Made by a program: the position numbers and the translations under genes
The notes under the pieces: generated by a model
What the model was told of the DNA's origin: nothing
Database searches by the model: none
Seen by the model: only the letters and a program-made list of their open reading frames with translations
Assembly: GCF_003018255.1 (NCBI RefSeq)
Contig: NZ_CP027440.1
Length of the DNA: 64,000 nt
Source: Escherichia coli
Lineage (GTDB): Bacteria; Pseudomonadota; Gammaproteobacteria; Enterobacterales; Enterobacteriaceae
Direction: 5' to 3' (one strand)
In this document: positions 10,467 through 62,004 of the stretch, piece after piece
Layout: each line of letters begins with the position of its first letter
Position numbering within the stretch: position 1 is the stretch's first letter

Positions 10467-10757
10467 TTATGCCTGTTCAGCCATCGAGACCTGCACATAG
10501 TGGCCGTGATAGTTGAGCGATAGCGGTAATGCGACAGGGACTTTCATATCGCCCTGCGGCGGCTGGCAGTAGATCGTAAAGGTGACTTTCTTGCGGGATG
10601 TCCCGGCGGTGCGCAGGGTCAGCAGTACGACGAGCAACAGATTGCCCAGCCGTTCTTCCACCTGCTGCGGGTCGGCGGGAAATTCCACTGCGGATTGCCA
10701 GACATCAGGGGCGATAACCACCGGCATTAACGACGGTTTTTTATCGAAAAGCGACAT
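10467..10757 (-). CDS. Hypothetical ICE protein (96 aa)
   Basis: ATG at 10757 preceded by an AGGAG SD. No recognised motif. Confidence 0.5.
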   Translation of the reverse strand: MSLFDKKPSLMPVVIAPDVWQSAVEFPADPQQVEERLGNLLLVVLLTLRTAGTSRKKVTFTIYCQPPQGDMKVPVALPLSLNYHGHYVQVSMAEQA

Positions 10758-16914: not shown

Positions 16915-17027
16915 CGCTGTGCCGTCGCGGGGTTCACCACCTCTCCCATCCTACCCGACCTGGTGTACCGCCGCATAACAGGGACTGTTTCGCAGGGATG
17001 CGTATTTTTCGTCCGGAGAACAAGAAG

Positions 17028-17708: not shown

Positions 17709-17719
17709 AGGAGGACGTG

Positions 17720-21237: not shown

Positions 21238-21255
21238 CGTCGCCGGAGTGTTGAG

Positions 21256-22214: not shown

Positions 22215-23762
22215 ATGGAATATTCTATGTCGGATATTGTCGCCGGGAACAGGATTGCTGCTCAATATTTAAGAATGTCTACCGAGCATCAGAAATATTC
22301 GCCGGAGAACCAGCGGGAATATATCGAGAAGTATGCAAAAGAACACTGTATTACCATTAAATATACCTATGACGACGCTGGCCGAAGTGGGCTGAGCCTG
22401 GATAACAGGCCTGGCCTGCGTTCGCTGTTATATGATGTTGAAAACGGAATAATAAAAGTCTCGTTAATTCTTGTTTACGATGTCAGTCGGTTTGGTCGTT
22501 TTCAGGATATTGAAGAGGCTGCTCATTACTCGTGGCTACTGAAGCGTAATGGTGTGCGCATTATTTATTGCGCGGAGCCTTTCTCGGAAGAACAGACCGA
22601 ATTGTTTATGCTGGGATTATCTTACTCCCGCTATGGCGCCGCAACTTACAGTAAAAACCTTTCACAAAAAGTTTTTCTTGGCCAGGCAAACCTCGTTCGG
22701 CGGGGTTATTATCAAGGTGGTATGCCTGGCTATGGCATTCGGAGATTATTAATTGATGAACATACTAATCCGAAAGGCATGCTTCTGCCGGGGCAAAGGA
22801 AAAGCCTGCAAACTGACAGAGTAATATTGATCCCGGGGCCCGCGGAAGAGGTGGTAATAGTCAATAAAATCTATGACATGTTTATTGATGAGGGCAAGCC
22901 TGAGTTTGTTATTGCTTCAGAACTGAACCGGAAGAACATCCCCGCCGAGAATGGGCTCCAGTGGAGCCGATGTAAAATTCATCAGATACTGACCAATGAA
23001 AAATATATTGGCAATAATGTTTATAACAGAACCTCCGGACGATTGAAGACCCGAAGTGTCAGGAATCCTCAGGATCAGTGGATCAGATGTGACGGCGCGT
23101 GGGACCCTGTGGTATCAGTAGAGAAATTTGAGGCGGCTAAAAGGATTATTGAAGCCAGGGCCGTTCAGTACAGTGATGATGAACTGCTGGATAAACTACG
23201 CCATCTGCTGAAGCTTCGTGGCAGATTATCCGGGATTGTGATTGATGAAGAGGAACTGTTTCCATCGAGCAGCATTTTTCGTTCACGGTTTGGTGGGTTA
23301 GTCAGGGCTTACACCCTTATTGGTTATCACCCGCGCCATGATTACTCTTATCTTGAAATAAAAAAGCAGATTGCAGAATGCCATCTCACTTTCATGGATA
23401 ATTTGGTGCAGGATATATACCGATATGGCGGTTGGGCAGAGATGCATCAGGATGGTTCATTATATATTAATGATGAGTTTTTTGTTTCCGCTAATCTGGT
23501 TCGCTGCCAACGTTTGTCGTCAGGTAAGCTTCGTTGGAAGATAAAATTTAATGTATCCCATTATTGTGATGTCATGATCTTTCCACGGTTGGATAGCACA
23601 AATAACTCCGTGGTTGATTACTTTATGTTTCCGGCTATTGATGTGTTGTATAACGATTTAACGCTTCATGAGAACAATGGTTTTATCCTCGAACTATATC
23701 GATTTGATGATTTGTCATGTCTGGAAAATCTTGTAAAACGAACTGGTCTGGAGAGTAAATAA
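22215..23762 (+). CDS. Large serine recombinase
   Basis: 515 aa. AAQYLRMSTEHQ (catalytic Ser region), DDAGRSG and VYDVSRFGR form the resolvase domain, followed by a recombinase/zinc-ribbon-length extension. Lower GC than the fim genes. Confidence 0.85.
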   Translation: MEYSMSDIVAGNRIAAQYLRMSTEHQKYSPENQREYIEKYAKEHCITIKYTYDDAGRSGLSLDNRPGLRSLLYDVENGIIKVSLILVYDVSRFGRFQDIEEAAHYSWLLKRNGVRIIYCAEPFSEEQTELFMLGLSYSRYGAATYSKNLSQKVFLGQANLVRRGYYQGGMPGYGIRRLLIDEHTNPKGMLLPGQRKSLQTDRVILIPGPAEEVVIVNKIYDMFIDEGKPEFVIASELNRKNIPAENGLQWSRCKIHQILTNEKYIGNNVYNRTSGRLKTRSVRNPQDQWIRCDGAWDPVVSVEKFEAAKRIIEARAVQYSDDELLDKLRHLLKLRGRLSGIVIDEEELFPSSSIFRSRFGGLVRAYTLIGYHPRHDYSYLEIKKQIAECHLTFMDNLVQDIYRYGGWAEMHQDGSLYINDEFFVSANLVRCQRLSSGKLRWKIKFNVSHYCDVMIFPRLDSTNNSVVDYFMFPAIDVLYNDLTLHENNGFILELYRFDDLSCLENLVKRTGLESK

Positions 23763-24649
23763 TGAAATCTTTTGATGAACAGATAGAACTTGTCGATATC
23801 AGTGATATTTATATCGCAAATCCACGGAAAAGGAATAAATTCATTCATAATGAAATAAAAGAGAACATAAAAACCATTGGTCTGAAACGGCCTGTTAGCG
23901 TGCGCCCAGTGAATAATGAAAACTATAAATATGCCCTGATTTGTGGTCAGGGACGACTTGAAGCGTATATTGAGTATGGTGAAACGAAAATTCCTGCAAT
24001 CATCAAGCAGGTTGATGAAGAGACAGCGCACCTGATGAGCCTGGCTGAAAACATCGCAAGACGTAATCCCCGGGCGGCAGAGCTAATGGAAGATATCAGA
24101 AGAATGAAGACCAGTGGCCTGACCGATCGTGAAATAGGCTTGCGGCTTGGGTATAATTCGAGTTGGGTAAATGGGGTGATCACTCTGTTGTCATCCGGAG
24201 AGAAGCATCTTTTGCGGGCATTTGAGACTGGCGATATTCCCTTGTATCTTGCTGTGGAAATATCCCGGTCAGGAGATGAGGAAACTCAGGAACTGCTGAC
24301 GGTCGCCCTGAAAGAAGGACATATCAAGGGTGGGCAAATTAATAAGATCAGGCGCATACTTGAACAACGTAAGAAAGGCGATAAAGGTACGATTAGTACG
24401 GCTTTTTTTCCTGGGAAAAAACAGAAAAAACTGACCCCGGAAGAACTGGCTAATGTCTACCAGGAAAACATTAATGAGCAAAAAGCCATTCTGCTGAAAT
24501 CCACAATGGTTAAAGAGAAAATTCTGGCAGTAAAGCAAATATTTGGTTATTTACTTAAAGATAATGATTTTGTTACATTGCTGCACAGTAATAATATCCA
24601 CGATATTCCTTCTTTACTGGATGGCAGTGATGTATCGGGGGAGAAATAA
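23762..24649 (+). CDS. ParB/RepB-like protein 1
   Basis: 295 aa. ParB N-domain pattern IGLKRPVSVRP..YALICGQGRLEA, then HTH-like TDREIGLRLGYNSSWV. TAATG overlap with the recombinase stop. Confidence 0.7.
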   Translation: MKSFDEQIELVDISDIYIANPRKRNKFIHNEIKENIKTIGLKRPVSVRPVNNENYKYALICGQGRLEAYIEYGETKIPAIIKQVDEETAHLMSLAENIARRNPRAAELMEDIRRMKTSGLTDREIGLRLGYNSSWVNGVITLLSSGEKHLLRAFETGDIPLYLAVEISRSGDEETQELLTVALKEGHIKGGQINKIRRILEQRKKGDKGTISTAFFPGKKQKKLTPEELANVYQENINEQKAILLKSTMVKEKILAVKQIFGYLLKDNDFVTLLHSNNIHDIPSLLDGSDVSGEK

Positions 24650-24650
24650 G

Positions 24651-25541
24651 ATGATTTCACAATGTTTTGACTCCCGATTTTATACCTTTAAGGTGGAATC
24701 ACTGGTGTATGCCAGAACGCTGCCGGTTAATGTTAAATTCAGTACGAAGTACAAACAAATTAAAGCCTCTGTCGATGAAATTGGGTTAATTGAACCCATT
24801 GTGGTTTATATCAATGACGCCAATGATAAAGTCATTCTGGATGGACATCTTCGCGTTGAAGTTTTGAAAGAACTCGGAATAACTACTGCTCATTGTCTGA
24901 TATCCCCTGTGGAGGATACATATTCATATAACAAACGTGTTAGTCGCCTTACCATTGTGCAGGCCCAAAACATGCTGCTTAAAGCGGTTGAATCTGGCGT
25001 TTCAGTTGAAAAACTATGCGCCGTACTGGGTGTCACGCCAGATACGCTGATTGGTAAACTGAAAATTTCTGATGGCATTGCCCCTGAAGTCATGGCGTTA
25101 CTGGCAGAAAAAAATGTACCGCAGACCATTTTCTCTGTGTTGAAAAAACTAAAGTTCTATAAGCAGATAGAAATGGTTAACACCATGATCAGTATTAATA
25201 ATTTCACCCGCAAATTTGCGATGTCGATGCTGCATGCCGTTGCCCCTGAACATCTTGTAGCGCCTAAAAAAGATGCCAGCAGAGAAACAGATATCAGAAA
25301 AAATCTCGAAAGACTGGAAAAAGAAATGGCTTCCGTTCAGGTGGAAACGCAGCATCTTCAGGATGAATATGCTGAGAATAACCTTCGGCTGGTTATCATT
25401 AAAAATCACATTGAACGTCTGCTGGCGAACGGTCAGGTACTTAACTGGCTTTATGATAACCATCAGGAGTACCTTTCTGTGCTCAAGCAAATCTCGGGGC
25501 TGGATGATTTGAATAAGCTTGGCCAGACAATTGAGGAATGA
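24651..25541 (+). CDS. ParB-like protein 2 (divergent) with a C-terminal coiled coil
   Basis: Start at MISQCF (GGGGGAG SD), 1 nt after the previous stop. IGLIEPIVVY...VILDGHLRVEVLKELG is ParB-N-like. C-terminal heptad-rich LERLEKEMASVQVETQHLQDE. Confidence 0.6.
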   Translation: MISQCFDSRFYTFKVESLVYARTLPVNVKFSTKYKQIKASVDEIGLIEPIVVYINDANDKVILDGHLRVEVLKELGITTAHCLISPVEDTYSYNKRVSRLTIVQAQNMLLKAVESGVSVEKLCAVLGVTPDTLIGKLKISDGIAPEVMALLAEKNVPQTIFSVLKKLKFYKQIEMVNTMISINNFTRKFAMSMLHAVAPEHLVAPKKDASRETDIRKNLERLEKEMASVQVETQHLQDEYAENNLRLVIIKNHIERLLANGQVLNWLYDNHQEYLSVLKQISGLDDLNKLGQTIEE

Positions 25542-37938: not shown

Positions 37939-39180
37939 TCATTTCACTACATGAAGAATTTTTAGCATAGAGTTGTCAATGGTCTGTTTGATTTTCTCGT
38001 AATAAATTGGTTCAGATAATGGCGAGTCCCAGGTATGTATATCATTTTTATCAAAGGGAATACATTTCATCGCTGTCTTTTTTAGTTTTTTCCCTTTTTG
38101 TTCGTACTCGTCAATGTCATTTACAGTGAATTTCAAACTTTCTATTCTTGCTTTGACTATTGCTGTTGGGCAGATGAGTTTTATATTCCCTAAAGTAAAT
38201 GTGTTAACTCCAGTAATGAAGAATCTATCAGGGATGTTTTTATAGTATCGAGTATTCCATATTTTACCATTAAACATACCTGCTGGGTGAGTTGCTCTTT
38301 CAATATAGTATTCATGGGTTCTCTGGTCACTAATCCCTGAAAGATTCATTGTCATATTAGCTATCATGTTGGGAATAGGTCTGTACCAAACGCTAAGTGC
38401 AGCGGTTGCGACAGGTATAAATATTAAAACAACAATAATTCCTGTCATTTTATTGCCGTTTTGCCGTTCATTAATATGTATGATACCAGGCAGAATGCCA
38501 ATTGTAACAATAACTACAGTTATGGCAATGAGTATGCTCATCTCATACCAGTCACTAGTACCCTCACTGAAATTAAGTTGGTTAAACAGAAACATCATTG
38601 GTAATATTTGTACTACTCCAGGTATTATAAGTTGTAAGGATAACCAGAAGTTGAATCCTTTCTTTCTGGATAGTTTTTCGTATCGCACTGTATTATTTAA
38701 GCGAGATTTTTGTTTTCTAAATAGCCGAATCGCACATGTAACATAGCTGTGAATAAATATGGAAATAATACTAAAGGCTGTAATTATGTAGCCATTCCAT
38801 TTTGTCATGTAATAAATGTAATAAGCAATGATTAGCAGGCAGCATATAAATAAGCTATTCTGATAGCAAACAGTAGAAATCCGATGGGTGATGCTAGAAT
38901 ATACCTTTAACTTGTTTTCATATCCAGAGTAAATAAGTATTAAAATAAAAGATGAGATGAAAATTATTAGGCTGAATCCTGATATCGATAATAAAATAAA
39001 AAAGAATATAATCCCTAAGGTTGAACTGAGGTTTACAGCATCGAAAAAAATATCTAATCTATCAATGTTTGATAGGTAAAACCATATAACTGCTATCGTG
39101 AATCCAGTGATGAAGGTAGATGAGGTTACTACTGAAATAATGAATTTTTTGTTTATGATATTAAAAATAGGTTTGTCCAT
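37939..39180 (-). CDS. Polytopic membrane protein of unknown function (cargo)
   Basis: 413 aa, very AT-rich. About 8 hydrophobic spans, then a ~140-aa soluble C-terminus. No recognised motif. Confidence 0.6.
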   Translation of the reverse strand: MDKPIFNIINKKFIISVVTSSTFITGFTIAVIWFYLSNIDRLDIFFDAVNLSSTLGIIFFFILLSISGFSLIIFISSFILILIYSGYENKLKVYSSITHRISTVCYQNSLFICCLLIIAYYIYYMTKWNGYIITAFSIISIFIHSYVTCAIRLFRKQKSRLNNTVRYEKLSRKKGFNFWLSLQLIIPGVVQILPMMFLFNQLNFSEGTSDWYEMSILIAITVVIVTIGILPGIIHINERQNGNKMTGIIVVLIFIPVATAALSVWYRPIPNMIANMTMNLSGISDQRTHEYYIERATHPAGMFNGKIWNTRYYKNIPDRFFITGVNTFTLGNIKLICPTAIVKARIESLKFTVNDIDEYEQKGKKLKKTAMKCIPFDKNDIHTWDSPLSEPIYYEKIKQTIDNSMLKILHVVK

Positions 39181-39225: not shown

Positions 39226-39510
39226 TCACCAATTTACAGGTAAGCGCCGATGGGTATGAAACACGCGTAAAACCTGAATTATATTATTTCGTACTCGATA
39301 GGGAATGATATAAGGGTAATTATGAAGAATGAGCTCACGTGTTTCAGGTACCCTTCCTTCCCGGCCCATAGCGGGTTGCTCTTTGAGCAGTTGCGTAAGT
39401 CGCCAGACTTCGTTCACAAACCGTTCCGCAGCCTGCGGATCGTCTTCAGCAATATACCGGAACTCAGCTTCGAGATTGGCAATGGCTTTACGTAGCCACT
39501 TAATTTCCAT
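39226..39510 (-). CDS. RelE/ParE-family type II toxin
   Basis: 94 aa. Ends ..YIIPYRVRNNIIQVLRVFHTHR, typical of ParE/RelE. Overlaps the antitoxin stop. Confidence 0.8.
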   Translation of the reverse strand: MEIKWLRKAIANLEAEFRYIAEDDPQAAERFVNEVWRLTQLLKEQPAMGREGRVPETRELILHNYPYIIPYRVRNNIIQVLRVFHTHRRLPVNW

Positions 39511-39745
39511 CTGGCTTTACTCCCAGACGTTGAAACAGCTTATCCACCTCATCTGAAGTGGCAAAATCACCGGCATCAGCTTCCTGAATGGCCTGCTCAA
39601 TCTCTGCAACTTGCCAGGCCTCCCGGGCAACATAATCTTCAATTGCCTGATTTGCCAGCCAGGACTTTGAGCGTCCGGTCGCTTTTGATAATGCTTCCAG
39701 TTGCGTGGAAAGATTGTTGTTTAAACGGACTGACATTACGCCCAT
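39500..39745 (-). CDS. RHH (CopG/ParD-like) antitoxin
   Basis: MGVMSVRLNNNLSTQLEALSKATGRSKSWLANQAIEDYV is a ribbon-helix-helix motif. GAGG SD before the ATG at 39745. Confidence 0.75.
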   Translation of the reverse strand: MGVMSVRLNNNLSTQLEALSKATGRSKSWLANQAIEDYVAREAWQVAEIEQAIQEADAGDFATSDEVDKLFQRLGVKPDGN

Positions 39746-45885: not shown

Positions 45886-47691
45886 TTACTCATTCCGTAA
45901 CGACTTAATCAGCTCTGTCACGTTCTGCTGTTGCTGCACCAGGAACGCCTCCAGTCCCATTTTCCCCGTCGCGATGTCATCCAGCATTTGCTCCCACAGT
46001 GCAGTGGTGCCTGGATCTTTCAGCGTTTCCGGCAGGGCGTCAATCAGCGTGCTGGCGGTATCCGTTGCCAGCAGGAAACGACGCTGCTTAATCAGATAGC
46101 CGCGCTTAAGGAGCGTCTGGATAATCCCGGCGCGGGTGGCTTCGGTGCCGATGCCCGCGTTTTCTTTCAGCCGCTGTTTCAGGCGTTCATCGCTGACAAA
46201 ACGGGCGGCATTTTTCATCGCGGCAATCAGCGTCCCTTCGGTGTAGTGCTCCGGTGGCTGGGTCTGGCGGGCGCGAACGTCCACCTGTTCCACCTAGCAG
46301 GTTTGTCCCTGTTGCAGGGCGGGAAGTGCCTGCGTTTCTTCCGGTGAGTGCGTTGCCATTTCGCGCAAAAACAGTTGTCGCCAGCCGCTGACAATCACCA
46401 CTGAGCCACGGGCAGTCAGCGTTTCCCCGGCGCAGTTCAGGCGCAGGTCCGTTTTATCCACTTCGTGGTCTGGCAGAAACTGCGCCAGAAAATGGCTGCG
46501 TACCAGGCCGTAGACCTTGCGCTCGCTGTCGTTCATCTGCGTCAGATCTACCGTTTTACGGGTCGGGATGATGCCATGGTGGGCGGTGATTTTGCTGTCG
46601 TCCCACAACCGGGAGCGTTGCTGCAGATTAAGCTGCGTGGCGAGGGGCTGGAGTGAAGCGTCGCTGGCGACCAGCGCCGCCAGAACTTGTGGTGCTTCAT
46701 CGTGCATGGAGAGCGGCAGATAGCCGCAGTCGGTGCGCGGGTAGGTGGTGGCTTTATGGGTTTCATACAGGAGCTGGGCGATATCCAGAACCTCCTGTGC
46801 GCCCATGCCCCACTGTTTTGAGCAGGCCTGCTGCAGGGCGCTGAGAGTGAAGGCCTGCGGTGGCGGCGTTTTCTCCCGCCGGGTTGTCACGTCCATTACC
46901 AGCGCGGTTCCGGCTTGTTGCAGGCGTGCTGTGGCCTCACGGGCGGCGGATTCGCGGATGCAGCGGCTTTCGTCGTCACAGTACGCACTATCCGGCTGCC
47001 ACTGCGCCAGAAAGGAACAACCCTCCGCATGCAAACGGGCATCCACCCGCCACCAGGGGCGGGGCGTGAAGCGGGCGATCTCCCGGTCGCGCTCCACCAC
47101 CAGACGCAGGGTCGGCGTCTGCACCCGGCCCACGGAGAGCACGCCCTTGTGCCGCCGGTTCATTAGCGTGCAGGCGCGGGTCATGTTGATGCCGACCAGC
47201 CAGTCGGTGCGGGCGCGCGCCAGTCCGGCCTGATACAGCGGAAAGGTGCTGTCGCCGGGACGCAGAGTGGCGAGCGCCTTGTGGATACTGGCCTCATCCA
47301 GCGCCGACAGCCACAGCCGCTGGACCGGACCGCGCCAGCGGCATTGTTCCAGAATTTCGCGGGCGATGGTTTCGCCTTCGCGATCGGCGTCGGTGGCAAT
47401 CACCACTGCATCCGCCTGTTTCAGCAGCTTTTCGATGATACGGAACTGCTTATGCACCTCCGGGCGGATCACCAACCGCCATGCCGGGGGAATAAACGGC
47501 AGCTGTTCCGTCCGCCAGTGTTTCAGCGCCGGATCGTAATCCTCCGGCGCGGCCATGCTCAGCAGATGGCCGAAACACCAGGTGATGGTTACGGTGGCGT
47601 TATGCAGGTAGCCGTCGCTGCGGTTATGGGCGTCAAGAATTCGGGCGATGTCGCGTGCCTGAGAGGGTTTTTCGCACAGGTAAAGTTGCAT
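45886..47691 (-). pseudogene. DNA topoisomerase III interrupted by a single in-frame TAG
   Basis: MQLYLCEKPSQARDIA, DADREGE (Toprim), SVGRVQTPTL and TTYPRTDCGYL (catalytic Tyr). The TAG at 46294-46296 separates ..QQGQTC from VEQVDVRARQTQPPEHYTEGTLI.. in the same frame. Confidence 0.85.
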
Positions 47692-52995: not shown

Positions 52996-53171
52996 GGGTA
53001 ACTCCTATTAGTTACATATGATGAGTACTATCTAAAAAAGCCAACTAAAGCGAGGTAAGGTGAGTTCTTTTAACTGGTTGTTTTGTATGTGATCTATTGG
53101 TGTTTTTTTTAGGTTTTTTACTGTTTTATTTAGGAAATCAATGATTACGAATAGGCATAAATATGGTATGA

Positions 53172-53198
53172 TATCCATTAGTATAATATCAATGGATA
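53172..53198. promoter_or_regulatory. Inverted repeat bracketing a TATAAT box upstream of the DUF262 gene
   Basis: TATCCATT (53172-53179) aG TATAAT atc AATGGATA (53191-53198). The ATG is at 53211. Confidence 0.45.
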
Positions 53199-53210
53199 AA
53201 GGCTTCTGTT

Positions 53211-55157
53211 ATGAATTTTGAAGAGCTTATAAATGATATTGAAAGACTCTTAATTGGTAAAGAGTTGCAGTCTATAAATCCTAACACCCCCCCATTATTC
53301 CTTTTAAAAATAGACAGGGATATTGGTAAATATTACGTGTCTGTTTCTTTAAATGCTAAGCCTACGGCAAGGTCAATTTCTGAATTTGAATATATATTTA
53401 ATGACTTACTGCGTAAAGGGTTTTGTAATGTAGATCAGTCATTATATGGTAGCTCTTCAAGCCGTAATCACCCGGAAACAATATTTGCAAACTTGCCTTA
53501 TATTCAATTCTTTAAGTTCAAGAAAAAGAAACATATATTATTACGTAATAAAAATGTACACGAAGCAGGTCAACTTTCTGAATTACAAGGGGCTGAGTCT
53601 CGTGCTATAAGGAAGCAAATAGAAAATTATTTATCTCTAAATTTAAGTGAAATTGCAGAGCAGCAGTTAAAATCGTTGGAAAAAATGTTCGATGCGTATG
53701 ATGCTATTTTAAAAAAATACCCAGGGGATATCCCTGTTATAATGGCTGAGCAAGGCTTGTTGGGATTAAAAAACATTAGCGAAGTACTGATTAATTCTTA
53801 TGTTTCCTTGGATTTTGACAGTAGTGGCGATAAAATAAATAAATTAAGTAAATTTAAACAGGTGGAGTTATTTAAAGAAGATTTATCTTTAGAGGATTTA
53901 ATTGAGTCCCCTGAGATAAGTGGAGTTGATTCAGGTGATAAGAATATTGAGGAACAATCGGAATCAGAATTAGCACCTGAGCAAAAACGTACGGGCATTG
54001 CAAAAATGCTTATGACTACACCAGTTTTAACACTAATTTTTGATCGTGTAAGATATGATGAAATTGAGTTACAACCTGACTTTCAGAGAAAAGACCGAAT
54101 TTGGCCTGACGACAAAAAGTCAAAACTTATTGAATCAATATTAATGAAGCTTCCATTACCGGGGTTTTACTTTGGTGAAAAGCCAAACGGTAACTGGGTA
54201 GTTATTGATGGCCTTCAAAGAACGACTACAATTTGTGATTATATGAGTGGTCATTTCTCATTGAAAGGGCTCTCTATTTTAGAGCACTTAAATGGAAAGA
54301 GTTTTAAAGATCTTACTCGAACCGAGCAACGAGACATTAGAGAGTATCAAATTACGGCTTACCAAATAGAACTAAATGATGATAGTTCTGAATTGGTTGT
54401 AGAACTATTCCATAGAATAAACACTTATGGTGTAAAGTTAAGTAGTCAAGAAATAAGATCTGCACTTAATAAAGGCAATAGCGTAACCTTTTTACGTTAT
54501 TTAGCTTCATTAGAAACGTTCAAAAAAGCGACGCAATTTAAAGTAAAGCCGGACAGGCAAAAAGATATGGAGCTCTGTTTGTCCGCTCTTGCTTTTATGG
54601 TACTTGGTTATAATAACTATGGCCAACATTCGTATGATCATTTTTTATGTAGTGCAATGCAGAAGCTAAATAATTATCCATTAAGCATCATTAATAAAGA
54701 AGAGATTGATGCTGGAACAGCTCTTATTTCTCCTTCAAGTGAAGTCTTTTTAACTTTATATTCAAAATATAATCAGGCTTTAATCTTAGCAAATGAAGTT
54801 TTTGGTGAAATAGCTTTTTCAAAAGATCCGGAAAATAAAAAATCACCTATTAATAAACAACTCTTTGAGTTAATTGTTACTGTTTTCTCTGTATTTGACT
54901 CACATCAAAAGGAGATGATGTTAGCTAATGGTGATAAATTTATTGATAGCTTATACTTGGCTATTGAGGAGAATAGTAGTCGATATGCTAAGTGGGAGTC
55001 TGATACATATGAAAAGGACGATAGAGGATTTAGAGACTCAATATCTACTTCGACAGGTAAAAGAATATCTGTTGTATATCGATTTGATGCTTTTTTAAAT
55101 ATCCTTGGAAAAAGCACAGGAATAACTATTGATAGTAAATTATTACAGGGGGAGTGA
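53211..55157 (+). CDS. DUF262 (ParB-like NTPase/nuclease superfamily) protein with an unknown ~285-aa N-terminal region
   Basis: 648 aa. LQPDFQRKDRIWPDDKKSKLIESILMKLPLPGFYFGEKPNGNWVVIDGLQRTTTI matches the DUF262 FQR...W / DGQQR core. Confidence 0.8.
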   Translation: MNFEELINDIERLLIGKELQSINPNTPPLFLLKIDRDIGKYYVSVSLNAKPTARSISEFEYIFNDLLRKGFCNVDQSLYGSSSSRNHPETIFANLPYIQFFKFKKKKHILLRNKNVHEAGQLSELQGAESRAIRKQIENYLSLNLSEIAEQQLKSLEKMFDAYDAILKKYPGDIPVIMAEQGLLGLKNISEVLINSYVSLDFDSSGDKINKLSKFKQVELFKEDLSLEDLIESPEISGVDSGDKNIEEQSESELAPEQKRTGIAKMLMTTPVLTLIFDRVRYDEIELQPDFQRKDRIWPDDKKSKLIESILMKLPLPGFYFGEKPNGNWVVIDGLQRTTTICDYMSGHFSLKGLSILEHLNGKSFKDLTRTEQRDIREYQITAYQIELNDDSSELVVELFHRINTYGVKLSSQEIRSALNKGNSVTFLRYLASLETFKKATQFKVKPDRQKDMELCLSALAFMVLGYNNYGQHSYDHFLCSAMQKLNNYPLSIINKEEIDAGTALISPSSEVFLTLYSKYNQALILANEVFGEIAFSKDPENKKSPINKQLFELIVTVFSVFDSHQKEMMLANGDKFIDSLYLAIEENSSRYAKWESDTYEKDDRGFRDSISTSTGKRISVVYRFDAFLNILGKSTGITIDSKLLQGE

Positions 55158-56305
55158 TGAAAAAAATTACGTCTTTAACATTAAAAAATTTCAAAGCTTA
55201 TAAAGAACAGAGTTTTGATTTTAGTAATTTAACTGTATTTTGCGGTAATAATTCTGTTGGTAAAAGTACGGCTATTCAAGCTATCGGTATGTTTCTCCAA
55301 TCAGATATGAATGGTAACAGTAATCTAAAAATAAATGGCGATTTAGTTCATGTCGGAGACTTCGACGATATTCATAATTTCAGTATGCGTGAGGATGATG
55401 TTTTATATTTAAAATATACATTTGAAGACGATACGGCTTGCTGGGGATATGGTATAGAAGAAGGGGATGCTAGAGAAGAACTTTCTAGGAAAAATGAATT
55501 ACCTTTTATTGGGTGTGATAAACAATTAAGAACTATAACAAACTCACTTAAAGATAACTTTTCATTCCAATATTTGGAAGCGGAGAGATTTGGTCCAAGA
55601 GATAATATTCCATTATCACAGCACAATTATCATGAAGGTTGGCTTGGGAAAAATGGGGAACATACAATTGAAGTTCTTGAGAGTTTGGTCACAAGGAGGC
55701 GTTTAAATTTTTCTGCTCAAGAGGATCCTAGGAAACATGAAGGAATTATTAATAATAATGTTTTCAATCATATTGAAGCATGGATGTCTGAGATTTCACC
55801 AGGGCATCGTATCTCACCTAGAATTGAGGCTAGGGCGAATGTTGCATTTAATGTCATAATCCCTTCACCTGGACAATTAACGAAACCTATTAACATAGGA
55901 TTTGGATTTAGTTATGCTCTTAGTATTGTCACTGCTTTAATGCTGGCATCAAAAAATGAACTCGTTATTATTGAAAATCCTGAGGCTCATCTACATCCAA
56001 GAGGTCAAAGCTATTTAGGACGACTTATTGCTTTATCAGCAAAAGCAGGGATCCAGGTTATTATTGAGACTCATAGTGATCATCTTCTTAATGGCATAAG
56101 AGTAATTGCACGCACAGATCCAACTTTTGATGCTTCTCTTTTTACTCTTTACTATATTTCACGAGAAAATGATGAAACATCTGTCGCCAAAATAAAAATA
56201 AATAATGAAGGGAAACTTTCCGAATGGCCTAGAGGGTTCTTTGATCAACAATCACAGGATATGTATACGATAATGACAGGCTCTTTTGATCATCCCAATA
56301 TTTAA
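55157..56305 (+). CDS. AAA/ABC-type ATPase with a DUF3696-like C-terminus
   Basis: Walker A FCGNNSVGKST, Walker B-region LVIIENPEAHLHP, H-loop IIETHSDHLL and C-terminal LSEWPRGFFDQ. Its ATG overlaps the upstream TGA (TGATG). Confidence 0.85.
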   Translation: MKKITSLTLKNFKAYKEQSFDFSNLTVFCGNNSVGKSTAIQAIGMFLQSDMNGNSNLKINGDLVHVGDFDDIHNFSMREDDVLYLKYTFEDDTACWGYGIEEGDAREELSRKNELPFIGCDKQLRTITNSLKDNFSFQYLEAERFGPRDNIPLSQHNYHEGWLGKNGEHTIEVLESLVTRRRLNFSAQEDPRKHEGIINNNVFNHIEAWMSEISPGHRISPRIEARANVAFNVIIPSPGQLTKPINIGFGFSYALSIVTALMLASKNELVIIENPEAHLHPRGQSYLGRLIALSAKAGIQVIIETHSDHLLNGIRVIARTDPTFDASLFTLYYISRENDETSVAKIKINNEGKLSEWPRGFFDQQSQDMYTIMTGSFDHPNI

Positions 56306-56324
56306 TATTGTAGGGACATATAAA

Positions 56325-57209
56325 ATGAAAGCTGGCGTGTTTCTTATTCCTGAATGTTTTGATTTCAATACGGATATTTTATCTTTAAGTTCGGACCTTG
56401 ATCTGGCTTCGAAACTCGTAGTAAATACCCGTTCAGAATTTATTCACTTTATGAAATCTAGGGAGTTTGACTCGAAGATTGCGGAGTTATTGTTTTCCAC
56501 ATCACCTGATTATGCTGGAATGATGTCAAGATTTTACGATCAGCATCTATCAAAAGTTATAAAAATGGATATTAATGACGATGATATTATTGATATTATA
56601 AATAGCGAAGAACCTAAGTATTCTAACCGTTTGTTATCAATTTTTAATACGGGAAAAAAAGATTTAAATATTAAATATGTTAATAGATTAATTGACTCAG
56701 AAATTAAGATGAATGATTATTGTACTGATATCTTATTGAATTACCCAAGAAATGACGAGCAATACTGTGAGGATATACAGCAGGTTTATAAAAATTTAAT
56801 TTTCCTAGATTATCCAGAGGCAAAAGAATTTAAGACATTTAATAGTCTCAAGAGAATGACCGGTGGTTATGATAATTTCTTGAAGGCTATAACCAATTTT
56901 TTAAGTTATATGAATAAATTCGAATTCAAAACGAAAGATATGATGGATACATTGAAAATGATGGAGAGTGATTTAGGATCTCCAGTAACTCCGGAAGGAG
57001 GGGGGAAGAAAAGCCGATCTTTGAAAAGAGATTTTTTAATTAATGGAAAGCTATATACAAATGTAAACTGCGAATTCCATTTGAAATTAGAAAATGTTGA
57101 TGATACTAAGGGAAACAGAAAACACCATAAGAATAGAATTTATTTTGGATTTATTATGATAAGTGATAAAAACAGAGTGGCAATAGCTCATATTGGGGAA
57201 CACATTTGA
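56325..57209 (+). CDS. Unknown 294-aa protein, third gene of the operon
   Basis: ATG 19 nt after the ATPase stop. No recognised domain. The C-terminus CEFHLKL...NRIYFGF...VAIAHIGEHI is faintly RelE/YafQ-like. Confidence 0.6.
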   Translation: MKAGVFLIPECFDFNTDILSLSSDLDLASKLVVNTRSEFIHFMKSREFDSKIAELLFSTSPDYAGMMSRFYDQHLSKVIKMDINDDDIIDIINSEEPKYSNRLLSIFNTGKKDLNIKYVNRLIDSEIKMNDYCTDILLNYPRNDEQYCEDIQQVYKNLIFLDYPEAKEFKTFNSLKRMTGGYDNFLKAITNFLSYMNKFEFKTKDMMDTLKMMESDLGSPVTPEGGGKKSRSLKRDFLINGKLYTNVNCEFHLKLENVDDTKGNRKHHKNRIYFGFIMISDKNRVAIAHIGEHI

Positions 57210-57219
57210 AATCATTTTA

Positions 57220-57248
57220 AACCTACTGATAGTATATATCAGTAGGTT
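57220..57248. terminator. Bidirectional hairpin between convergent operons
   Basis: AACCTACTGATA gtata TATCAGTAGGTT, a 12-bp perfect stem flanked by TTTT upstream. Confidence 0.6.
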
Positions 57249-57270
57249 CATGTTAATTTGATGTTCTTAG

Positions 57271-58344
57271 CTATATAACACAATCTTCCATAAAAGAATC
57301 TAGAAATAAATCATTTATTCCTTTAGGTTTTCTTCGGTCGCATAGAGAGTATAATTCTTCAACTGAAGAGTAAGGGAAGAATTTAGCTTTTAATTCAATG
57401 AATTGGGGCATGTTTGCAAATTCTATCACCTTTGCTCGATATTCATCAGGAGCAACGATAGTCCAACGGATATCTTGTAATCTCGGTGCATGATCATAGA
57501 ATTGTTTCATGCGAGTCAGACCACTTTTTATACCAGTACTGTGTTCAATCTCCATTACTGCTGGCATCATGCGGCCTTCCCTAAACCAAATGCAGTCTAT
57601 AAGACGAGCATCTTTAATCGCATCATTATACGATTGGAGTACTTGCTCATCAGATAATGAACTTATTACACCGTCCATTTGCGCTATAGCTTTACCATTA
57701 TATTGTAAGCTACGATCATTGGCTGCTACCCAAGTATCTAAACCTAAACAATAACCTATTTTTACTAAGGCAATTTGTATCTGAGCATGACGTCTTTTTT
57801 CTTCAATAGTCATGCCTTTAGTCGGTTTAATTGTCTCAATATCAACGCTTTGGTGAACAACATCGAAGCTCATTTCAGAGACAACAATATTAGTCTGGTG
57901 CTCAATTAACAAACCATTAGTATGTGGCATATCTGGCAGAAAAATCAGATGCTTATGTCCTGGTTTTATAGACTTTTGTGCATTCATGATTTCCAGTCTG
58001 GCTGGCCTACACCAATAGAACTCTGGAGTATGTGCGAGCAAGCTCTCCAATACCGAGCGGGTGTTGTAACTGGCACCGAAAACCCTTTCAACGTTGACAG
58101 GTCTGTTTTCTTCGAGTGCATTTGCAAGTCGCCAAAGCATTTGAGTCGAAATACTCTCTGTTTTAGCTGTTGCTTGAGTTTGACCTTTCTTAGGATCAAA
58201 TCTCTTTATTTCGATAGGACCTTCGGGATGTTGGATACGTACAATCTCAATCTTCCCGCTATTCCTATCGTTTATATAGTTAAACAGCGTATTTTTGGGT
58301 AAGCTCGAAATCGCCTGAACCAGATTCGATGCTGTTATCCTCAT
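57271..58344 (-). CDS. Putative type II restriction endonuclease
   Basis: 357 aa, downstream of and overlapping the C5-methyltransferase gene by 65 nt. PD-(D/E)xK-like LIDCIWF...AVMEIEHST. Specificity unknown. Confidence 0.6.
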   Translation of the reverse strand: MRITASNLVQAISSLPKNTLFNYINDRNSGKIEIVRIQHPEGPIEIKRFDPKKGQTQATAKTESISTQMLWRLANALEENRPVNVERVFGASYNTRSVLESLLAHTPEFYWCRPARLEIMNAQKSIKPGHKHLIFLPDMPHTNGLLIEHQTNIVVSEMSFDVVHQSVDIETIKPTKGMTIEEKRRHAQIQIALVKIGYCLGLDTWVAANDRSLQYNGKAIAQMDGVISSLSDEQVLQSYNDAIKDARLIDCIWFREGRMMPAVMEIEHSTGIKSGLTRMKQFYDHAPRLQDIRWTIVAPDEYRAKVIEFANMPQFIELKAKFFPYSSVEELYSLCDRRKPKGINDLFLDSFMEDCVI

Positions 58345-59419
58345 TACTGTATCCTAAATGTTGCAAAATTGATTGGGCAATACCGAGCGCGGCGATATAG
58401 GGAACTCCGTTTCCGACTGTTTTAAACATATTCGACAAAGTCATATCCCCTGGTAGCTCAAAATTTTTTGGCAAAGACTGGATTGCCAATGCTTCAGCGA
58501 CCGTAATACGACGAGGTTTGTATGGGTGAAGGTGAACTTCATTATTACCATATGCTGCTGTTGGAGAGTATCTCCAGCGATGAAGCCTTTTATATGATTT
58601 TTTACTATCGTCGCCTTCTTCTACTGACTGGAATCTTGCTAAACCGGCTCGGGCCGTAAATACATGTTTAGCGTTTGGATGATTGGTAACATCGTTTTTC
58701 TCGAACCAGTATTCTATAGTAAGTTCTTCTGGAATACCTTGCGGGCATTCCATACTTGAGTCTTCTTCGTATGTGTTTGTTGTTGGCCAAGGGAACTGGA
58801 AAGCTTCCTTATTGGGGTATATTTGGCCACTCCATTCGAAGTTTTTGGCTAAAGACTTATCAAGAAAACCAACTAAAATAATCCTTTCTCGATCTTGAGG
58901 CGCACCGTATTCAATTGAATTAATCAATCTTTCATGCAGGATATATCCTACTGAAGCTAGTTCATTCTTAATTTGTTCGAAAAATTCTCTATGTTTAAGA
59001 GTCCGGTATAAGCCTTTAACGTTTTCAAAAAGGAAGAAATCAGGCATCATTTCAATTATCAGGTCAATGTAACTTTGTGATAATTTGCCATTTTCACCAT
59101 CTTTGCCTTTGTTTTTGCCAGCAACAGAAAAGTCAGGGCATGGTGGTCCGCCAATGAAGCCCACTAGGCGGTTTTCACCTTTCAGTGTTTTCATGCTATG
59201 CTTAATCACTGAATGCTCAATAGTTTCAATGCTTTCTTGGGCATACCCAAAGCGTGGCGGCTGTTTGCCAAGTTTTTTTCTTGAGTGTTTATACGCGTCC
59301 ATGAAGGGAGGATGGAATTCATTGACGAAAACCACCTCATACCCGGCATTTTCGAAGCCTAGGTCAAGAAAACCTGATCCTGAAAAGAATGAAAATATAG
59401 CGGGTTTCATTGTGGACAT
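58280..59419 (-). CDS. DNA (cytosine-5) methyltransferase
   Basis: Motif I FSFFSGSGFLDLGF, IV GGPPCPDFS, VI FLFENV, VIII QDRERI and X TVGNGVP. Confidence 0.9.
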   Translation of the reverse strand: MSTMKPAIFSFFSGSGFLDLGFENAGYEVVFVNEFHPPFMDAYKHSRKKLGKQPPRFGYAQESIETIEHSVIKHSMKTLKGENRLVGFIGGPPCPDFSVAGKNKGKDGENGKLSQSYIDLIIEMMPDFFLFENVKGLYRTLKHREFFEQIKNELASVGYILHERLINSIEYGAPQDRERIILVGFLDKSLAKNFEWSGQIYPNKEAFQFPWPTTNTYEEDSSMECPQGIPEELTIEYWFEKNDVTNHPNAKHVFTARAGLARFQSVEEGDDSKKSYKRLHRWRYSPTAAYGNNEVHLHPYKPRRITVAEALAIQSLPKNFELPGDMTLSNMFKTVGNGVPYIAALGIAQSILQHLGYSNEDNSIESGSGDFELTQKYAV

Positions 59420-59644
59420 TTTATACCTATCAAGTTAGCTTAAATTTTTACTAAATATCTCGCTGTACGATCCTACTATTTTACATGATAACTTGTTAAT
59501 TATCAATTTACTTTTTAATATATTAGCAAATAAGACCTGGCACTACTTCAGATTAGATAGTATTCATTGCTATAAAGTTAGGTGTTAATATATTGATTAA
59601 TAGTATAAGCTGCTATTATAGATTTAGAAACCGAAGGAACTTAT

Positions 59645-60100
59645 ATGCCTGATATGAGGTTATTTAAATCAAAAAACACCAAACTTGAGTTAAGAATCAG
59701 GAAGCCGTTGTTTGCCAGAGGATTTCGTTATCGATTGCATAATAGTGGTTTGCCTGGTAGACCAGATATGTATTTCCCTAAATACAATGCAGTCATTTTT
59801 ATCCATGGCTGTTTTTGGCATGGGCATGATAACGGCTGCCCTATATCTCACACTCCTAAAAATAATGAATCGTACTGGCAAAATAAAATCAATAAAAATC
59901 AAGAAAGAGATGTCAAAAATCAATATGTTCTTGCATCTAAAAACATCCGCGTTCTGATTATATGGGAGTGTGCAATAAAACTTAAAAGTATTGATTTTGT
60001 CGATTTTATTGATTACATCGATGAATGGCTTAGAGGTGGGGCAAATTCAACACAGATGAGCGCAAAGGAACCAATGCCGACTTTTGAGTTTCCGAAATGA
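59645..60100 (+). CDS. vsr: Very-short-patch repair endonuclease
   Basis: SKNTKLELRIRKPLFARGFRYRLH..LPGRPDMYFP..VIFIHGCFWHGH..NNESYWQNKINKNQERD..VLIIWEC. Confidence 0.9.
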   Translation: MPDMRLFKSKNTKLELRIRKPLFARGFRYRLHNSGLPGRPDMYFPKYNAVIFIHGCFWHGHDNGCPISHTPKNNESYWQNKINKNQERDVKNQYVLASKNIRVLIIWECAIKLKSIDFVDFIDYIDEWLRGGANSTQMSAKEPMPTFEFPK

Positions 60101-60282: not shown

Positions 60283-60423
60283 ATGCTTCAATCTCTGAAC
60301 CACTTAACGCTCGCCGTCAGTAATTTGCAAACTAGCCTGACATTCTGGCGCGATTTACTAGGGCTACATGTGGGAGATTTAGCATCCCGACTGACGCAGT
60401 GCCGGGAGAGGCCTTGCTCTTGA
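60283..60423 (+). pseudogene. Truncated FosA/glyoxalase-family gene remnant
   Basis: Own translation MLQSLNHLTLAVSNLQTSLTFWRDLLGLHV.. matches the FosA N-terminus (MLQSLNHLTLAVSDLQKSVTFW..LLGL), then diverges and stops after 46 codons. Confidence 0.6.
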
Positions 60424-60562
60424 ATGCGTTTCGGACCTGGAAAATAATTACGCAACTTTGTGATCTTCCACCCAGTATTCAATTTTATGTCCCATTTTGG
60501 GGGCAAATCCTCAAAATAAAATCTCACAAACCATTATTTTTCAACGAATTAAACGCAAAGGC

Positions 60563-60588
60563 GAGTCCGGCCTTCGACCTTCGCACCA
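60563..60588 (+). repeat. Degenerate copy of the leuX 3' end (candidate attR)
   Basis: GAGTCCGGCCTTCGaccttcGCACCA versus GAGTCCGGCCTTCGGCACCA at 655-674 (a 6-nt insertion). Confidence 0.55.
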
Positions 60589-61031: not shown

Positions 61032-61274
61032 TTACTCACTTCGAACTGCATCCTCGTAGACTGTTCCACTACAATAATCGAAAAGGCGCGGATGTCCATT
61101 CAGGTATCCCGCTAATACGTATAGCAATAACAATGGCTTATGCGGCGCGCGCTGTTCACCCTTGTGCCAGATTTTTATATTGGCAATTGCCTGCTGTAGC
61201 GATTTACTGGAAGCCATTGATATCCCTGGCAGTGAAATAATTGCGATCATGCTCGCAAATTTTCTGCTGTTCAA
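61032..61274 (-). pseudogene. N-terminal fragment of an HNH_2/restriction-like protein
   Basis: 80-aa ORF containing W.KGEQRAPHKPLLLLYVLA, which I associate with N-termini of ~290-aa HNH-type restriction proteins. It terminates early. Confidence 0.35.
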
Positions 61275-61353: not shown

Positions 61354-62004
61354 ATGAATAAACTCCCTGATCATCTTCCGCGGCGGTATATCATCGAAGC
61401 TATCCATTTATGGGATGCGGGAGAAACTCATCAGTTCCAGCCTGCGCGGTTGTATGAGATTGAATATCATGGCCGACGTTACCCCTCGAAGGCGATTGCT
61501 GGCATCGCAGCGACATTGATGACGGGGACGCAATTTACCCCTGCGGATTTCACCGGCGGAATAAAATCTAAATGCGTCAAACTACTCATAGAGCAGGGAT
61601 TTCATATTCATCAGGATAAAGCCGCTGCGGCTCCCATAGCCGACGTTCTGTTCCCGGATGAGTTGCCGTCGCAGGAGACATACCTTGAAGGTGCGGCGAT
61701 AAAGGTGACAGTAAACCGCTATGAACGCGATAAAAAGGCCCGAGATAAAGCGGTCGAACATCATGGATGCCAGTGCAACGTATGCGGCGTTGATCTGGTG
61801 AAGATCTATGGTGATATCGCTGAAGGCTTTATCCATATGCATCACCTGGTGCCGCTTTCAGCCATTAAAGAGGATTACCAGCTGGATCCAGTTAATGATT
61901 TGCTGCCTGTGTGCCCTAATTGCCATGCGATGCTGCACCGACGCAAACCACCGTTTTCACCGGAGGAGTTAAAAGCGTTGATGGATGCAAATAAATCAAA
62001 TTAA
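61354..62004 (+). CDS. HNH endonuclease (McrA-like), paralogue of 6586-7239
   Basis: 216 aa, collinear with the other copy. YPSKAIAGIAA, GGIKSKCVKLL, NRYERDKKAR, HGCQCNVCG, FIHMHHLVPLS and PVCPNCHAMLHRR. Confidence 0.8.
   Translation: MNKLPDHLPRRYIIEAIHLWDAGETHQFQPARLYEIEYHGRRYPSKAIAGIAATLMTGTQFTPADFTGGIKSKCVKLLIEQGFHIHQDKAAAAPIADVLFPDELPSQETYLEGAAIKVTVNRYERDKKARDKAVEHHGCQCNVCGVDLVKIYGDIAEGFIHMHHLVPLSAIKEDYQLDPVNDLLPVCPNCHAMLHRRKPPFSPEELKALMDANKSN

Follow-up and report, generated by a model that had tools for sequence, protein, structure and literature searches.

INTRODUCTION

Menshen is an anti-phage system that was named in 2022 and dissected bioinformatically in 2025, when Li et al. catalogued 1,997 systems in Nucleic Acids Research (PMC12065111). 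In their scheme, NsnA is the sensor, NsnB the transducer, and NsnC the effector, and NsnB is predicted to form a GajA-like tetramer that binds NsnC through DUF3696 (PMC12065111). The Menshen of Solibacillus silvestris StLB046 protects against phages T2, T4, and T6 and the Bacillus phage Fado, according to the account of Millman 2022 given by Li et al. (PMC12065111), and protection is lost when the DUF262 gene is mutated (PMC10952713). Type II Menshen, in which NsnA carries an additional N-terminal sensor domain, makes up 23% of systems; such domains fall into 33 families, PS-wHTH1-8 among them, and the winged helix is their commonest class (PMC12065111). Menshen has already been catalogued in the defense hotspots of Escherichia coli (PMC10121019). 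Here, we analyze a stretch of 64,000 nucleotides of E. coli DNA (the window) and conclude that the three-gene block at 53211-57209 almost certainly encodes an anti-phage system of the Menshen (NsnABC) family, Type II, which belongs to the cargo of the attachment site (att)-proximal end of a PFGI-1-class integrative and conjugative element (ICE) in a tRNA-Leu gene.

Several described systems share parts of the Menshen architecture. GmrSD, BrxU, and SspE likewise use a ParB-like DUF262 domain and a following helical DNA-binding domain as sensor, but they carry a DUF1524 nuclease, whereas the NsnA of the window does not and its effector is a separate RNase-type protein reached through an ABC ATPase. 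In PARIS (AriA/AriB), Septu (PtuA/PtuB), and Gabija (GajA), an ABC/OLD-type ATPase likewise holds or regulates a nuclease effector. Unlike these systems, Menshen has an NsnB without a Toprim domain, adds a DUF262 sensor, and employs an effector of the BECR RNase type in place of a DNase of the Toprim or HNH kind. The NmeDI restriction-modification (R-M) system (R.NmeDI, M.NmeDI, and V.NmeDI; target RCCGGY) is of the same type as the module that neighbors Menshen in the window, and the N-terminal domain of NsnA, a distant homolog of the noncatalytic N-terminal region of its restriction enzyme, goes together with a C5-cytosine methyltransferase (C5-MTase) of that kind too. NmeDI fuses its reader to a DNA cleavage domain, however, whereas Menshen fuses its reader to a ParB-like NTPase, with RNA cleavage as the predicted output. 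Finally, systems of the LlaJI and McrBC types, which have swappable N-terminal reader domains, and operons of the GHKL-helicase-Dcm-Vsr type likewise pair the N-terminal domain found here with an adjacent MTase, but their effectors cleave DNA, and Menshen uses the NsnB/NsnC pair of ATPase and RNase instead.

How Menshen works has been predicted in detail. An earlier reading of the window, made from the sequence alone (the original prediction), stated that no mechanism was known for the block. That statement overlooked the detailed mechanism predicted by Li et al. in 2025 but is right in that the literature that we searched contained no biochemical demonstration of a mechanism and no experimental mechanistic paper on Menshen. 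Moreover, the sense-and-abort logic that it proposed is essentially the sensor-transducer-effector model of Li et al. (PMC12065111). The same study found that 27.9% of Menshen operons adjoin BREX, R-M systems, or methylases and asked whether solitary methylases work with Menshen via DUF262; its main text ties no particular N-terminal domain to them (PMC12065111). Below, we describe a Type II locus in which an N-terminal domain and a methylase may be so tied.

RESULTS

The block at 53211-57209 encodes all three Menshen subunits. PADLOC models matched NsnA (1.7e-113, over amino acids [aa] 261 to 636 and profile positions 41 to 383 of 385), NsnB (1.4e-104), and NsnC (PDLC03915; 1.4e-83), the last two over the full length of the proteins, and thereby bore out the assignment to Menshen offered in the original prediction. 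RefSeq calls the three products "DUF262 domain-containing," "DUF3696 domain-containing," and "hypothetical." The three open reading frames (ORFs) are AT-rich, closely spaced, and co-directional, all on the plus strand. The TGA of nsnA (55155-55157) and the ATG of nsnB overlap by one base (TGATG), with GGGGGAG just 5', and the gap from the nsnB stop codon (56305) to the nsnC ATG is exactly 19 nt; this layout and the protein motifs quoted in the original prediction were all confirmed in the sequence. A longer form of nsnC starting from a TTG at 56286 was considered and rejected, as all homologs and the PADLOC profile start with the MKA encoded from the ATG at 56325, and RefSeq disagrees with the longer form too. 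The G+C fraction is 0.32 to 0.33 over 53 to 57 kb, compared to 0.56 to 0.63 in the ICE backbone directly upstream. DNA of the locus is present at 99.9 to 100% identity in 3 of 5,426 complete E. coli genomes.

The same gene order is found elsewhere. The trio, whose co-occurrence had been proposed as a check, keeps the order A-B-C at no fewer than 21 distinct loci of other species, from Vibrio, Shewanella, Proteus, Providencia, Klebsiella, Kosakonia, Salmonella, and others, and thus the arrangement is not due to chance. The Menshen of S. silvestris has the same three genes in the same order, with DUF262 and a helical C-terminal domain in NsnA and an ABC ATPase with DUF3696 as NsnB, but its NsnA has no N-terminal domain and is of Type I. 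We assign the NsnA of the window to Type II because aa 1 to 260 fall outside the NsnA profile and an extra globular domain precedes DUF262. As a Menshen, the locus is clearly ordinary and belongs to an already described family.

The core of NsnA has the DUF262 motifs and no nuclease. Pfam PF03235 (DUF262/GmrSD_N) matched aa 287 to 418 (4.4e-24). Motif I is QRKDRIW (54084-54104; FQRKDRIW is aa 291 to 298), motif II is DGLQR (54207-54221; aa 333 to 337), and motif III is FHRIN (54408-54422), and a helical ParBDB domain follows. These correspond to the Menshen motifs QRxxxW, DGxQR, and FxxxN, except that motif I here is a longer variant, QRxxxxW, with one residue more than the form given by Li et al. 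(PMC12065111). Pfam found no DUF1524 nuclease domain in NsnA, and membership in the GmrSD type was rejected on that ground. Within the region N-terminal to this core, homology among NsnA-type proteins reaches only to about aa 202.

NsnB is an ATPase of the ABC/OLD type that ends in a DUF3696 helix. Pfam matched AAA_15 (PF13175; 4.3e-28), AAA_21 (PF13304; 6.3e-17), and DUF3696 (PF12476; 1.6e-10, over aa 331 to 369), so that genes A and B both gave the Pfam hits that the original prediction had anticipated. The protein contains a Walker A motif of the form GxxxxGKS (GNNSVGKS, 55244-55267, aa 30 to 37), a signature (GFGFS, 55898-55912), a Walker B motif (LVIIEN, 55961-55978, aa 269 to 274), an H-loop (THS, 56069-56077, aa 305 to 307), and WPRGFF (56225-56242, aa 357 to 362). 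An EN Walker B and a GxG signature are the features that Li et al. give for Menshen NsnB (PMC12065111), and both are present. NsnB also matched the PADLOC models of AriA, GajA, and Old at 1e-13 to 1e-30. Pfam returned ATPase families and DUF3696 alone across its 382 aa, however, with no Toprim domain, and membership in the OLD/Gabija type was rejected for that reason.

NsnC resembles a toxin of the RelE class joined to an inactive PIN domain. The protein had no match in Pfam or NCBIfam. An AlphaFold2 (AF2) model (predicted local distance difference test [pLDDT] of 89.1; predicted TM score of 0.88) resembles PIN domains and the toxins RelE, YoeB, and YafQ. In an alignment of 44 homologs from Vibrio, Klebsiella, Kosakonia, Salmonella, Shewanella, and others, residues H252, K254, R271, H289, and H293 were invariant. 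The C-terminal domain has the helix, four-stranded antiparallel sheet, and conserved basic and His residues of BECR RNase toxins; the faint likeness to RelE/YafQ sensed in the original prediction is thus supported by the model and by the conserved His/Arg set. By contrast, PIN RNases have four acidic residues (D-E-D-D), and D72 is the sole near-invariant acidic residue within aa 1 to 165 of the 44 sequences; the PIN-like half therefore lacks the PIN catalytic set. An inactive PIN-like domain followed by an effector domain, encoded directly downstream of the other two genes, is the architecture of Menshen NsnC, and Li et al. describe the same combination of inactive PIN and BECR (YafQ-like, PB-BECR1) with an H-R-H triad (PMC12065111). 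From the modeled fold and the conserved residues, we infer both an RNase activity for NsnC and its target.

The N-terminal domain of NsnA is a defined and recurrent module. The AF2 model of aa 1 to 140 has a pLDDT of 96.4 and a winged-helix-like fold, the class that is commonest among the N-terminal domains of Li et al. Neither Pfam nor NCBIfam matched aa 1 to 286, and a word-indexed search with aa 1 to 260 returned just 4 partial enterobacterial proteins. The notion that the domain is an orphan was overturned by an exhaustive HMMER (phmmer) search of 1.84 billion representatives, which found 175 relatives. Hence, the region that the original prediction called unrecognizable is a recurrent domain that looks like a DNA reader. 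The unit that its relatives have in common runs from aa 1 to about 138 and contains a near-invariant motif with the consensus GSGSSRNQPET...ANLPY, represented in the window by the variant GSSSSRNHPET (aa 80 to 90; 53448-53480), which in the model sits at the turn and start of a putative recognition helix. A search of a profile of the domain against the sequences of the PDB gave nothing meaningful (best match, Alba2 at an E value of 0.33).

The reader domain occurs in three protein contexts. The first is NsnA proteins of about 640 aa, and the second is McrB-type proteins with an AAA_5 domain. Four such McrB fusions were found (L023 10001-11515, L027 3375-5948, L037 4359-6932, and L047 9992-11461, where L numbers designate the loci compared), and their arrangement is similar to that of LlaJI. 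The third is a standalone family of about 236 aa that consists of the reader and a C-terminal domain of about 100 aa, has no Pfam domain, and is always annotated as "hypothetical" (L002 6001-6723, L003 6001-6732, and loci among L025 to L056, mostly with the match at about 10001-10710). Its gene is the fourth of an operon, after those for a C5-MTase, a HATPase_c_3 protein (GHKL; about 840 aa), and a protein with Mrr_cat and a superfamily 2 helicase (about 580 aa), often with Vsr. Hosts of these operons include Paenibacillus, Maridesulfovibrio, Photobacterium, Shewanella, Bacteroidota, Acidobacteria, and others. Predicted R-M operons of GHKL (MORC/paraMORC), SFII helicase, Dcm, and Vsr were discussed by Iyer et al. 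in 2008 (PMC2292703), and the operon with the 236-aa protein falls in that class. We think that this protein is probably the DNA recognition subunit of an uncharacterized R-M-type system.

The reader domain is distantly related to a restriction endonuclease (REase). The product of the gene next to nsnC is an REase of the NmeDI family, and its orthologs in Kosakonia and Klebsiella aerogenes (92 to 96% identity) carry Pfam NmeDI_C in their C-terminal half. In hhalign comparisons, the reader profile aligned with the N-terminal region of the window REase (aa 27 to 150, approximately) at a probability of 94.1% and an E value of 1.3e-7 and with a profile of five REase family members at 95.5% and 1.4e-8 over 96 columns. 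Moreover, a hidden Markov model (HMM) built from the N-terminal domains alone scored 5 of 5 REases in a targeted test at E values of 2e-8 to 1e-6, each time over the same region. Identity is about 22%; BLASTP of the domain against the neighboring REase gave nothing (E value of 43), and the relation is seen by profile methods alone. The recognition site of R.NmeDI is RCCGGY, and cleavage takes place 12/7 nt outside the site on either side (Kwiatek and Piekarowicz 2007; PMC2095814). Cutting at a distance from RCCGGY implies that the recognition and cleavage domains of the enzyme are separate, and the N-terminal region that matches the reader is the noncatalytic one. By these profile alignments, the NsnA domain is related to what is most likely the DNA recognition half of the REases with which this MTase family is partnered. 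RCCGGY itself occurs 38 times in the ICE compared to about 74 times expected from base composition, an expectation too crude for the count to be used as evidence of avoidance.

The reader domain nearly always travels with one group of C5-MTases. In 48 genome loci encoding the domain, ORFs were called and neighbors were classified with HMMs derived from seeds. A C5-MTase gene was directly adjacent in 14 of 14 of those that were Menshen loci, upstream and co-directional in 11 (often with a constant spacer of 113 to 125 nt) and downstream and convergent in 3, and a cluster-A C5-MTase lay immediately upstream in each of the 4 McrB fusions. Among loci retrieved through NsnC homologs, Vibrio cholerae carries an MTase-NsnABC cassette, and Kosakonia and K. 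aerogenes have the arrangement of the window, with NsnABC followed by convergent REase and MTase genes and then Vsr. In sum, 18 of the 21 distinct Menshen loci with the domain have an adjacent cluster-A MTase, and in the GHKL/Mrr-helicase class, the MTase gene is within the operon. The MTase encoded at 58280-59419 is the candidate self-protection partner of the Menshen in the window. The window also encodes Vsr; Vsr proteins are the usual companions of C5-MTases.

The linked MTases belong together. Those beside Menshen and McrB loci form one orthogroup and are 54 to 65% identical over full length to the MTase of the window. Identities among the Menshen parts are 48 to 66% for the N-terminal domain, 53 to 62% for the NsnA core, 43 to 62% for NsnB, and 26 to 43% for NsnC; the MTase diverges in step with NsnA and NsnB, and NsnC is far more divergent. 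A second MTase cluster, present in many GHKL operons, is 37 to 43% identical. Because its target recognition domain (TRD) is about as conserved as the catalytic core (39% versus 42%), whereas unrelated C5-MTases in the same loci have 16 to 17% identity in the TRD, the comparison argues for related specificities of the two clusters. An HMM of the NmeDI-type REase had no hit across all 11 mapped cassettes of orphan MTase and NsnABC, and a Pfam scan of the immediate neighbors of five such cassettes found no recognizable restriction nuclease; these neighbors were of housekeeping or mobile-element kinds, namely gcvP, an IMPDH-family gene, integrases, a CI repressor, CdiA, and similar genes, and two were without a Pfam domain.

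Table 1. Features at the right end of the ICE and the basis on which each was assigned
Feature	Coordinates	Strand	Description	Basis
Upstream AT-rich region	53000-53210	+	Presumed promoter	Read from sequence; a guess
nsnA (ORF A)	53211-55157	+	648 aa; Menshen sensor subunit, Type II form	RefSeq WP_001561323.1, "DUF262 domain-containing protein"
NsnA N-terminal domain	53211-53630	+	aa 1-140; winged-helix-like	AF2, homology
NsnA helical segment and linker	53631-53990	+	Helical, aa ~141-205; acidic and probably disordered, aa ~205-260	Homology, composition
NsnA core	53991-55118	+	ParB-like DUF262 NTPase domain and C-terminal ParBDB-type helical domain	Pfam, PADLOC
nsnB (ORF B)	55157-56305	+	382 aa from ATG; ABC/OLD-type ATPase with C-terminal DUF3696 helix	
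nsnC (ORF C)	56325-57209	+	294 aa from ATG; effector	
NsnC N-terminal domain	56325-56819	+	aa ~1-165; inactive-PIN-like	Model, alignment
NsnC C-terminal domain	56937-57206	+	aa ~205-294; BECR (RelE/YafQ-like), RNase type	Model, alignment
Hairpin between convergent nsnC and REase genes	57220-57248	.	12-bp stem	Terminator scan
NmeDI-family type II REase	57271-58344	-	357 aa	PADLOC REase_II PDLC03534, 4.2e-120
C5 DNA cytosine MTase	58280-59419	-	379 aa; cluster A	Pfam DNA_methylase, 1.4e-52; PADLOC MTase_II, 1.7e-161
Vsr very-short-patch repair endonuclease	59645-60100	+	151 aa	Pfam Vsr, 1.7e-25; PADLOC Vsr, 1.5e-27
Candidate attR	60560-60588	+	Degenerate direct repeat of the tRNA-Leu(CAA) 3' end	k-mer search, sequence reading

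The operon is cargo at the right end of an ICE. The host element (Table 1 lists its right end) is a PFGI-1-class ICE that starts at tRNA-Leu(CAA) (590-674) and encodes MobH relaxase, TraD, TraG, and TIGR037xx proteins by RefSeq annotation. Its genes extend to 52995, and the REase, C5-MTase, and Vsr module occupies 57271-60100, so that the annotation and the att repeat agree with the position given in the original prediction, between the last backbone gene and attR and beside the R-M/Vsr module. The candidate attR contains an exact 15-nt core, CGAGTCCGGCCTTCG, at 60562-60576, followed by CACCA. This core was found by an exact k-mer search; a search with a 23-nt pattern of the tRNA 3' end at up to 3 mismatches found the tRNA itself alone. 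In K. aerogenes (L062), the same core lies right after a VOC gene at 13486-13500, about 700 nt beyond Vsr, and because the core recurs at this equivalent position, we regard the operon as cargo of the right end. In loci of Klebsiella pneumoniae, Enterobacter, Salmonella, and Kosakonia, the distance between the core and nsnA ranges from about 200 nt to 1.3 kb (L007 4715-4729, L058 to L061 5703-5717, and L004 3571-3585).

Residence on an ICE raises an alternative in which the operon serves the element rather than defends against phages. With its ATPase restraining a RelE-like toxin, the operon could act as an addiction module that stabilizes the ICE, or it could exclude competing elements. Every enterobacterial locus examined is a leuX-linked island with the Menshen cargo block at its att-proximal end, the ICE holds other toxin-antitoxin modules (AbiE and RelE/ParE-CopG), and the fold of NsnC is of the toxin type. 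We nonetheless consider such a role very improbable, as anti-phage activity has been demonstrated for the family, many homologous cassettes lie off ICEs and between housekeeping genes, and a sensor architecture of three components exceeds what a toxin-antitoxin module needs.

Sequences that flank the operon may serve its expression. A TATAAT lies at 53182-53187, 24 nt 5' of the nsnA start and between the arms of a 7-bp inverted repeat, ATCCATT/AATGGAT (53173-53179 and 53191-53197), and the repeat could be an operator over a promoter. A generic promoter scan found 21 matches compared to 21.3 expected from shuffled sequences; with no enrichment, we make no promoter claim. The hairpin downstream of nsnC is a probable bidirectional terminator.

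Other features of the ICE and its surroundings were noted. Close to its left end, on the inside, the ICE has a type IV toxin-antitoxin (abortive infection) pair, AbiEi/AbiEii (2757-4533; RefSeq annotation of an identical genome). A RelE/ParE toxin and CopG antitoxin (39226-39745), adjoined by a hypothetical gene of 413 aa (37939-39180), occupy a low-G+C patch inside the conjugation cluster (0.33 at 38 to 39 kb). A second low-G+C cargo patch (22215-25541; 0.40 to 0.42) holds the genes of a large "recombinase family protein" of the serine type and of two ParB/RepB-like proteins. It is preceded by a five-gene chaperone-usher fimbrial operon (16402-22203), before which lies a tyrosine DNA invertase (15444-16034). 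RefSeq marks the integrase beside tRNA-Leu (897-2573) as incomplete, with its C terminus missing, and topoisomerase III (45886-47691) as a pseudogene with an internal stop, and the ICE may no longer be fully mobile. Gene remnants and one intact gene surround the candidate attR (60284-60367, 61070-61219, and 61354-62004). A VOC-family fragment lies inside the island. Outside the island are a fragment of a ScoMcrA-like REase that binds phosphorothioated DNA and an intact HNH protein of 216 aa, with weak PADLOC matches to type IV modification-dependent REases. Intact ScoMcrA-like genes occupy the equivalent place in K. aerogenes (L062 14643-16327), which suggests a decayed type IV restriction islet beside leuX.

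DISCUSSION

How a Type II Menshen might distinguish self from non-self is suggested by the company that its reader domain keeps. We favor a working model in which NsnA is the sensor, with a DUF262 NTPase, a helical domain that would bind DNA by homology, and an N-terminal reader predicted to be winged-helix-like. The reader would bind the site targeted by the linked C5-MTase as long as that site is unmethylated; by analogy with NmeDI, the site would be RCCGGY-like. Host DNA methylated by the MTase encoded at 58280-59419 would be ignored, and incoming unmethylated DNA would be detected. By analogy with ParB-ParA and SMC systems, and following Li et al. 2025, DNA-bound NsnA would switch on the ATPase of NsnB, and an ATP-driven change or release would activate NsnC. 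The BECR domain of NsnC would then cleave RNA with its His-Arg-His set, and the catalytically dead PIN-like domain may serve in docking or RNA binding. The outcome would be a shutoff of translation that blocks the replication of phages and possibly of plasmids or other incoming DNA too. Taken as a whole, Type II Menshen together with this model is the explanation that we consider probable. The parts differ in strength. Methylation sensing is suggested because the reader nearly always travels with one C5-MTase group, and by analogy with R-M systems, we regard the proposal that the reader senses unmethylated sites while the MTase protects self DNA as about evenly poised.

Several observations weigh against the model. 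The putative recognition helix differs between the N-terminal domain (SSRNQPET) and the REases (YNTRSxLE), such that DNA specificity may differ between NmeDI and Menshen readers. Menshen loci of K. pneumoniae, Enterobacter, and Salmonella have the N-terminal domain without an adjacent cluster-A MTase; the three appear to represent one island lineage. The 14 genome loci, in turn, descend from one cassette lineage and are not independent observations, and the peptide pattern used in the genome scan missed the window's own GSSSSRN variant, such that the sampling was biased. The MTase of the window is partnered by an REase of its own, and adjacency could simply reflect a neighboring R-M system. 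Finally, Li et al. report no confident prediction of an NsnA-NsnB complex (PMC12065111).

Perhaps the locus is an ordinary Type II Menshen in which the N-terminal domain, as a generic or sequence-specific DNA binder, senses phage DNA independently of methylation and the R-M/Vsr genes are a separate defense system that happens to be clustered with it. The 27.9% of Menshen operons that adjoin BREX, R-M systems, or methylases are as expected for defense islands (PMC12065111), the MTase of the window overlaps and is co-oriented with its REase, and the three enterobacterial loci dispense with an adjacent MTase. Moreover, R-M/Vsr identity between E. coli, Kosakonia, and K. aerogenes is 93 to 98%, while that of Menshen is only 41 to 66%, and the modules therefore recombine independently. 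When 53211-60100 of the window was set against Kosakonia (L004 4849-11760) and K. aerogenes (L062 5876-12765), the REase, MTase, and Vsr were 84 to 98% identical, and the Menshen genes between the same flanks were only 62 to 66% (NsnA and NsnB) and 41 to 43% (NsnC) identical. The comparison indicates that the Menshen module has been replaced or recombined as alleles within a constant ICE and R-M context, in keeping with the evolution that Li et al. call "polymorphic" (PMC12065111). Chance clustering does not sit well, however, with an adjacent MTase of the same orthogroup in all 14 genome loci and V. cholerae, where the HMM detected no NmeDI-type REase, or with the five cassettes whose neighbors by Pfam include no restriction nuclease. 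Nor does it account for the codivergence of the MTase with NsnA and NsnB, for the recurrence of the pairing on McrB and GHKL/Mrr-helicase chassis, or for the homology of the domain to the recognition half of the very REases that partner this MTase family. We therefore regard methylation-independent binding as unlikely and prefer methylation sensing through the reader.

Alternatively, DUF262 might read modified phage DNA (glucosyl-hydroxymethylcytosine or phosphorothioate, for example) in the manner of type IV restriction, with the N-terminal domain adding affinity and the MTase being irrelevant. T-even phages carry glucosyl-hydroxymethylcytosine. DUF262 is the modification sensor in GmrSD and SspE (PMC12065111; PMC10952713), and the S. 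silvestris Menshen, in the secondhand account noted above, protects against T-even phages and Fado. The NsnA of the window has motifs II and III in intact form and motif I in the form with one extra residue. Sensing of this kind leaves unexplained, however, why the N-terminal domain is nearly obligately linked to one C5-MTase orthogroup and why it is homologous to an REase region that reads unmodified RCCGGY. We judge it decidedly unlikely as the whole explanation, and we note that sensing of modified DNA by DUF262 and sensing of methylation by the reader are not mutually exclusive.

If methylation sensing by the reader is correct, the locus would be a defense system that discriminates self from non-self epigenetically, as R-M systems do, but responds with an RNase, by abortive infection or translation arrest. 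More broadly, and with confidence a little short of even, we propose that this subtype of Menshen is a four-gene R-M-like system, of C5-MTase and NsnABC, that releases a RelE-like RNase instead of cutting DNA. The reader and MTase, as a pair of fixed or closely related specificity, would in that case be a portable module for self/non-self discrimination, mounted on at least four chassis: the NmeDI nuclease domain, the McrB GTPase, the GHKL-ATPase/Mrr-helicase, and Menshen. The occurrence of the same reader and MTase orthogroup on the McrB, GHKL/Mrr-helicase, and NmeDI chassis is a clean example of how restriction-type systems exchange their sensor modules. Being native to E. coli and carried on an ICE, the locus is well suited to serve as an experimental model of Type II Menshen. 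Ultimately, how Menshen senses infection is a question on which this locus and its relatives offer a concrete hypothesis.

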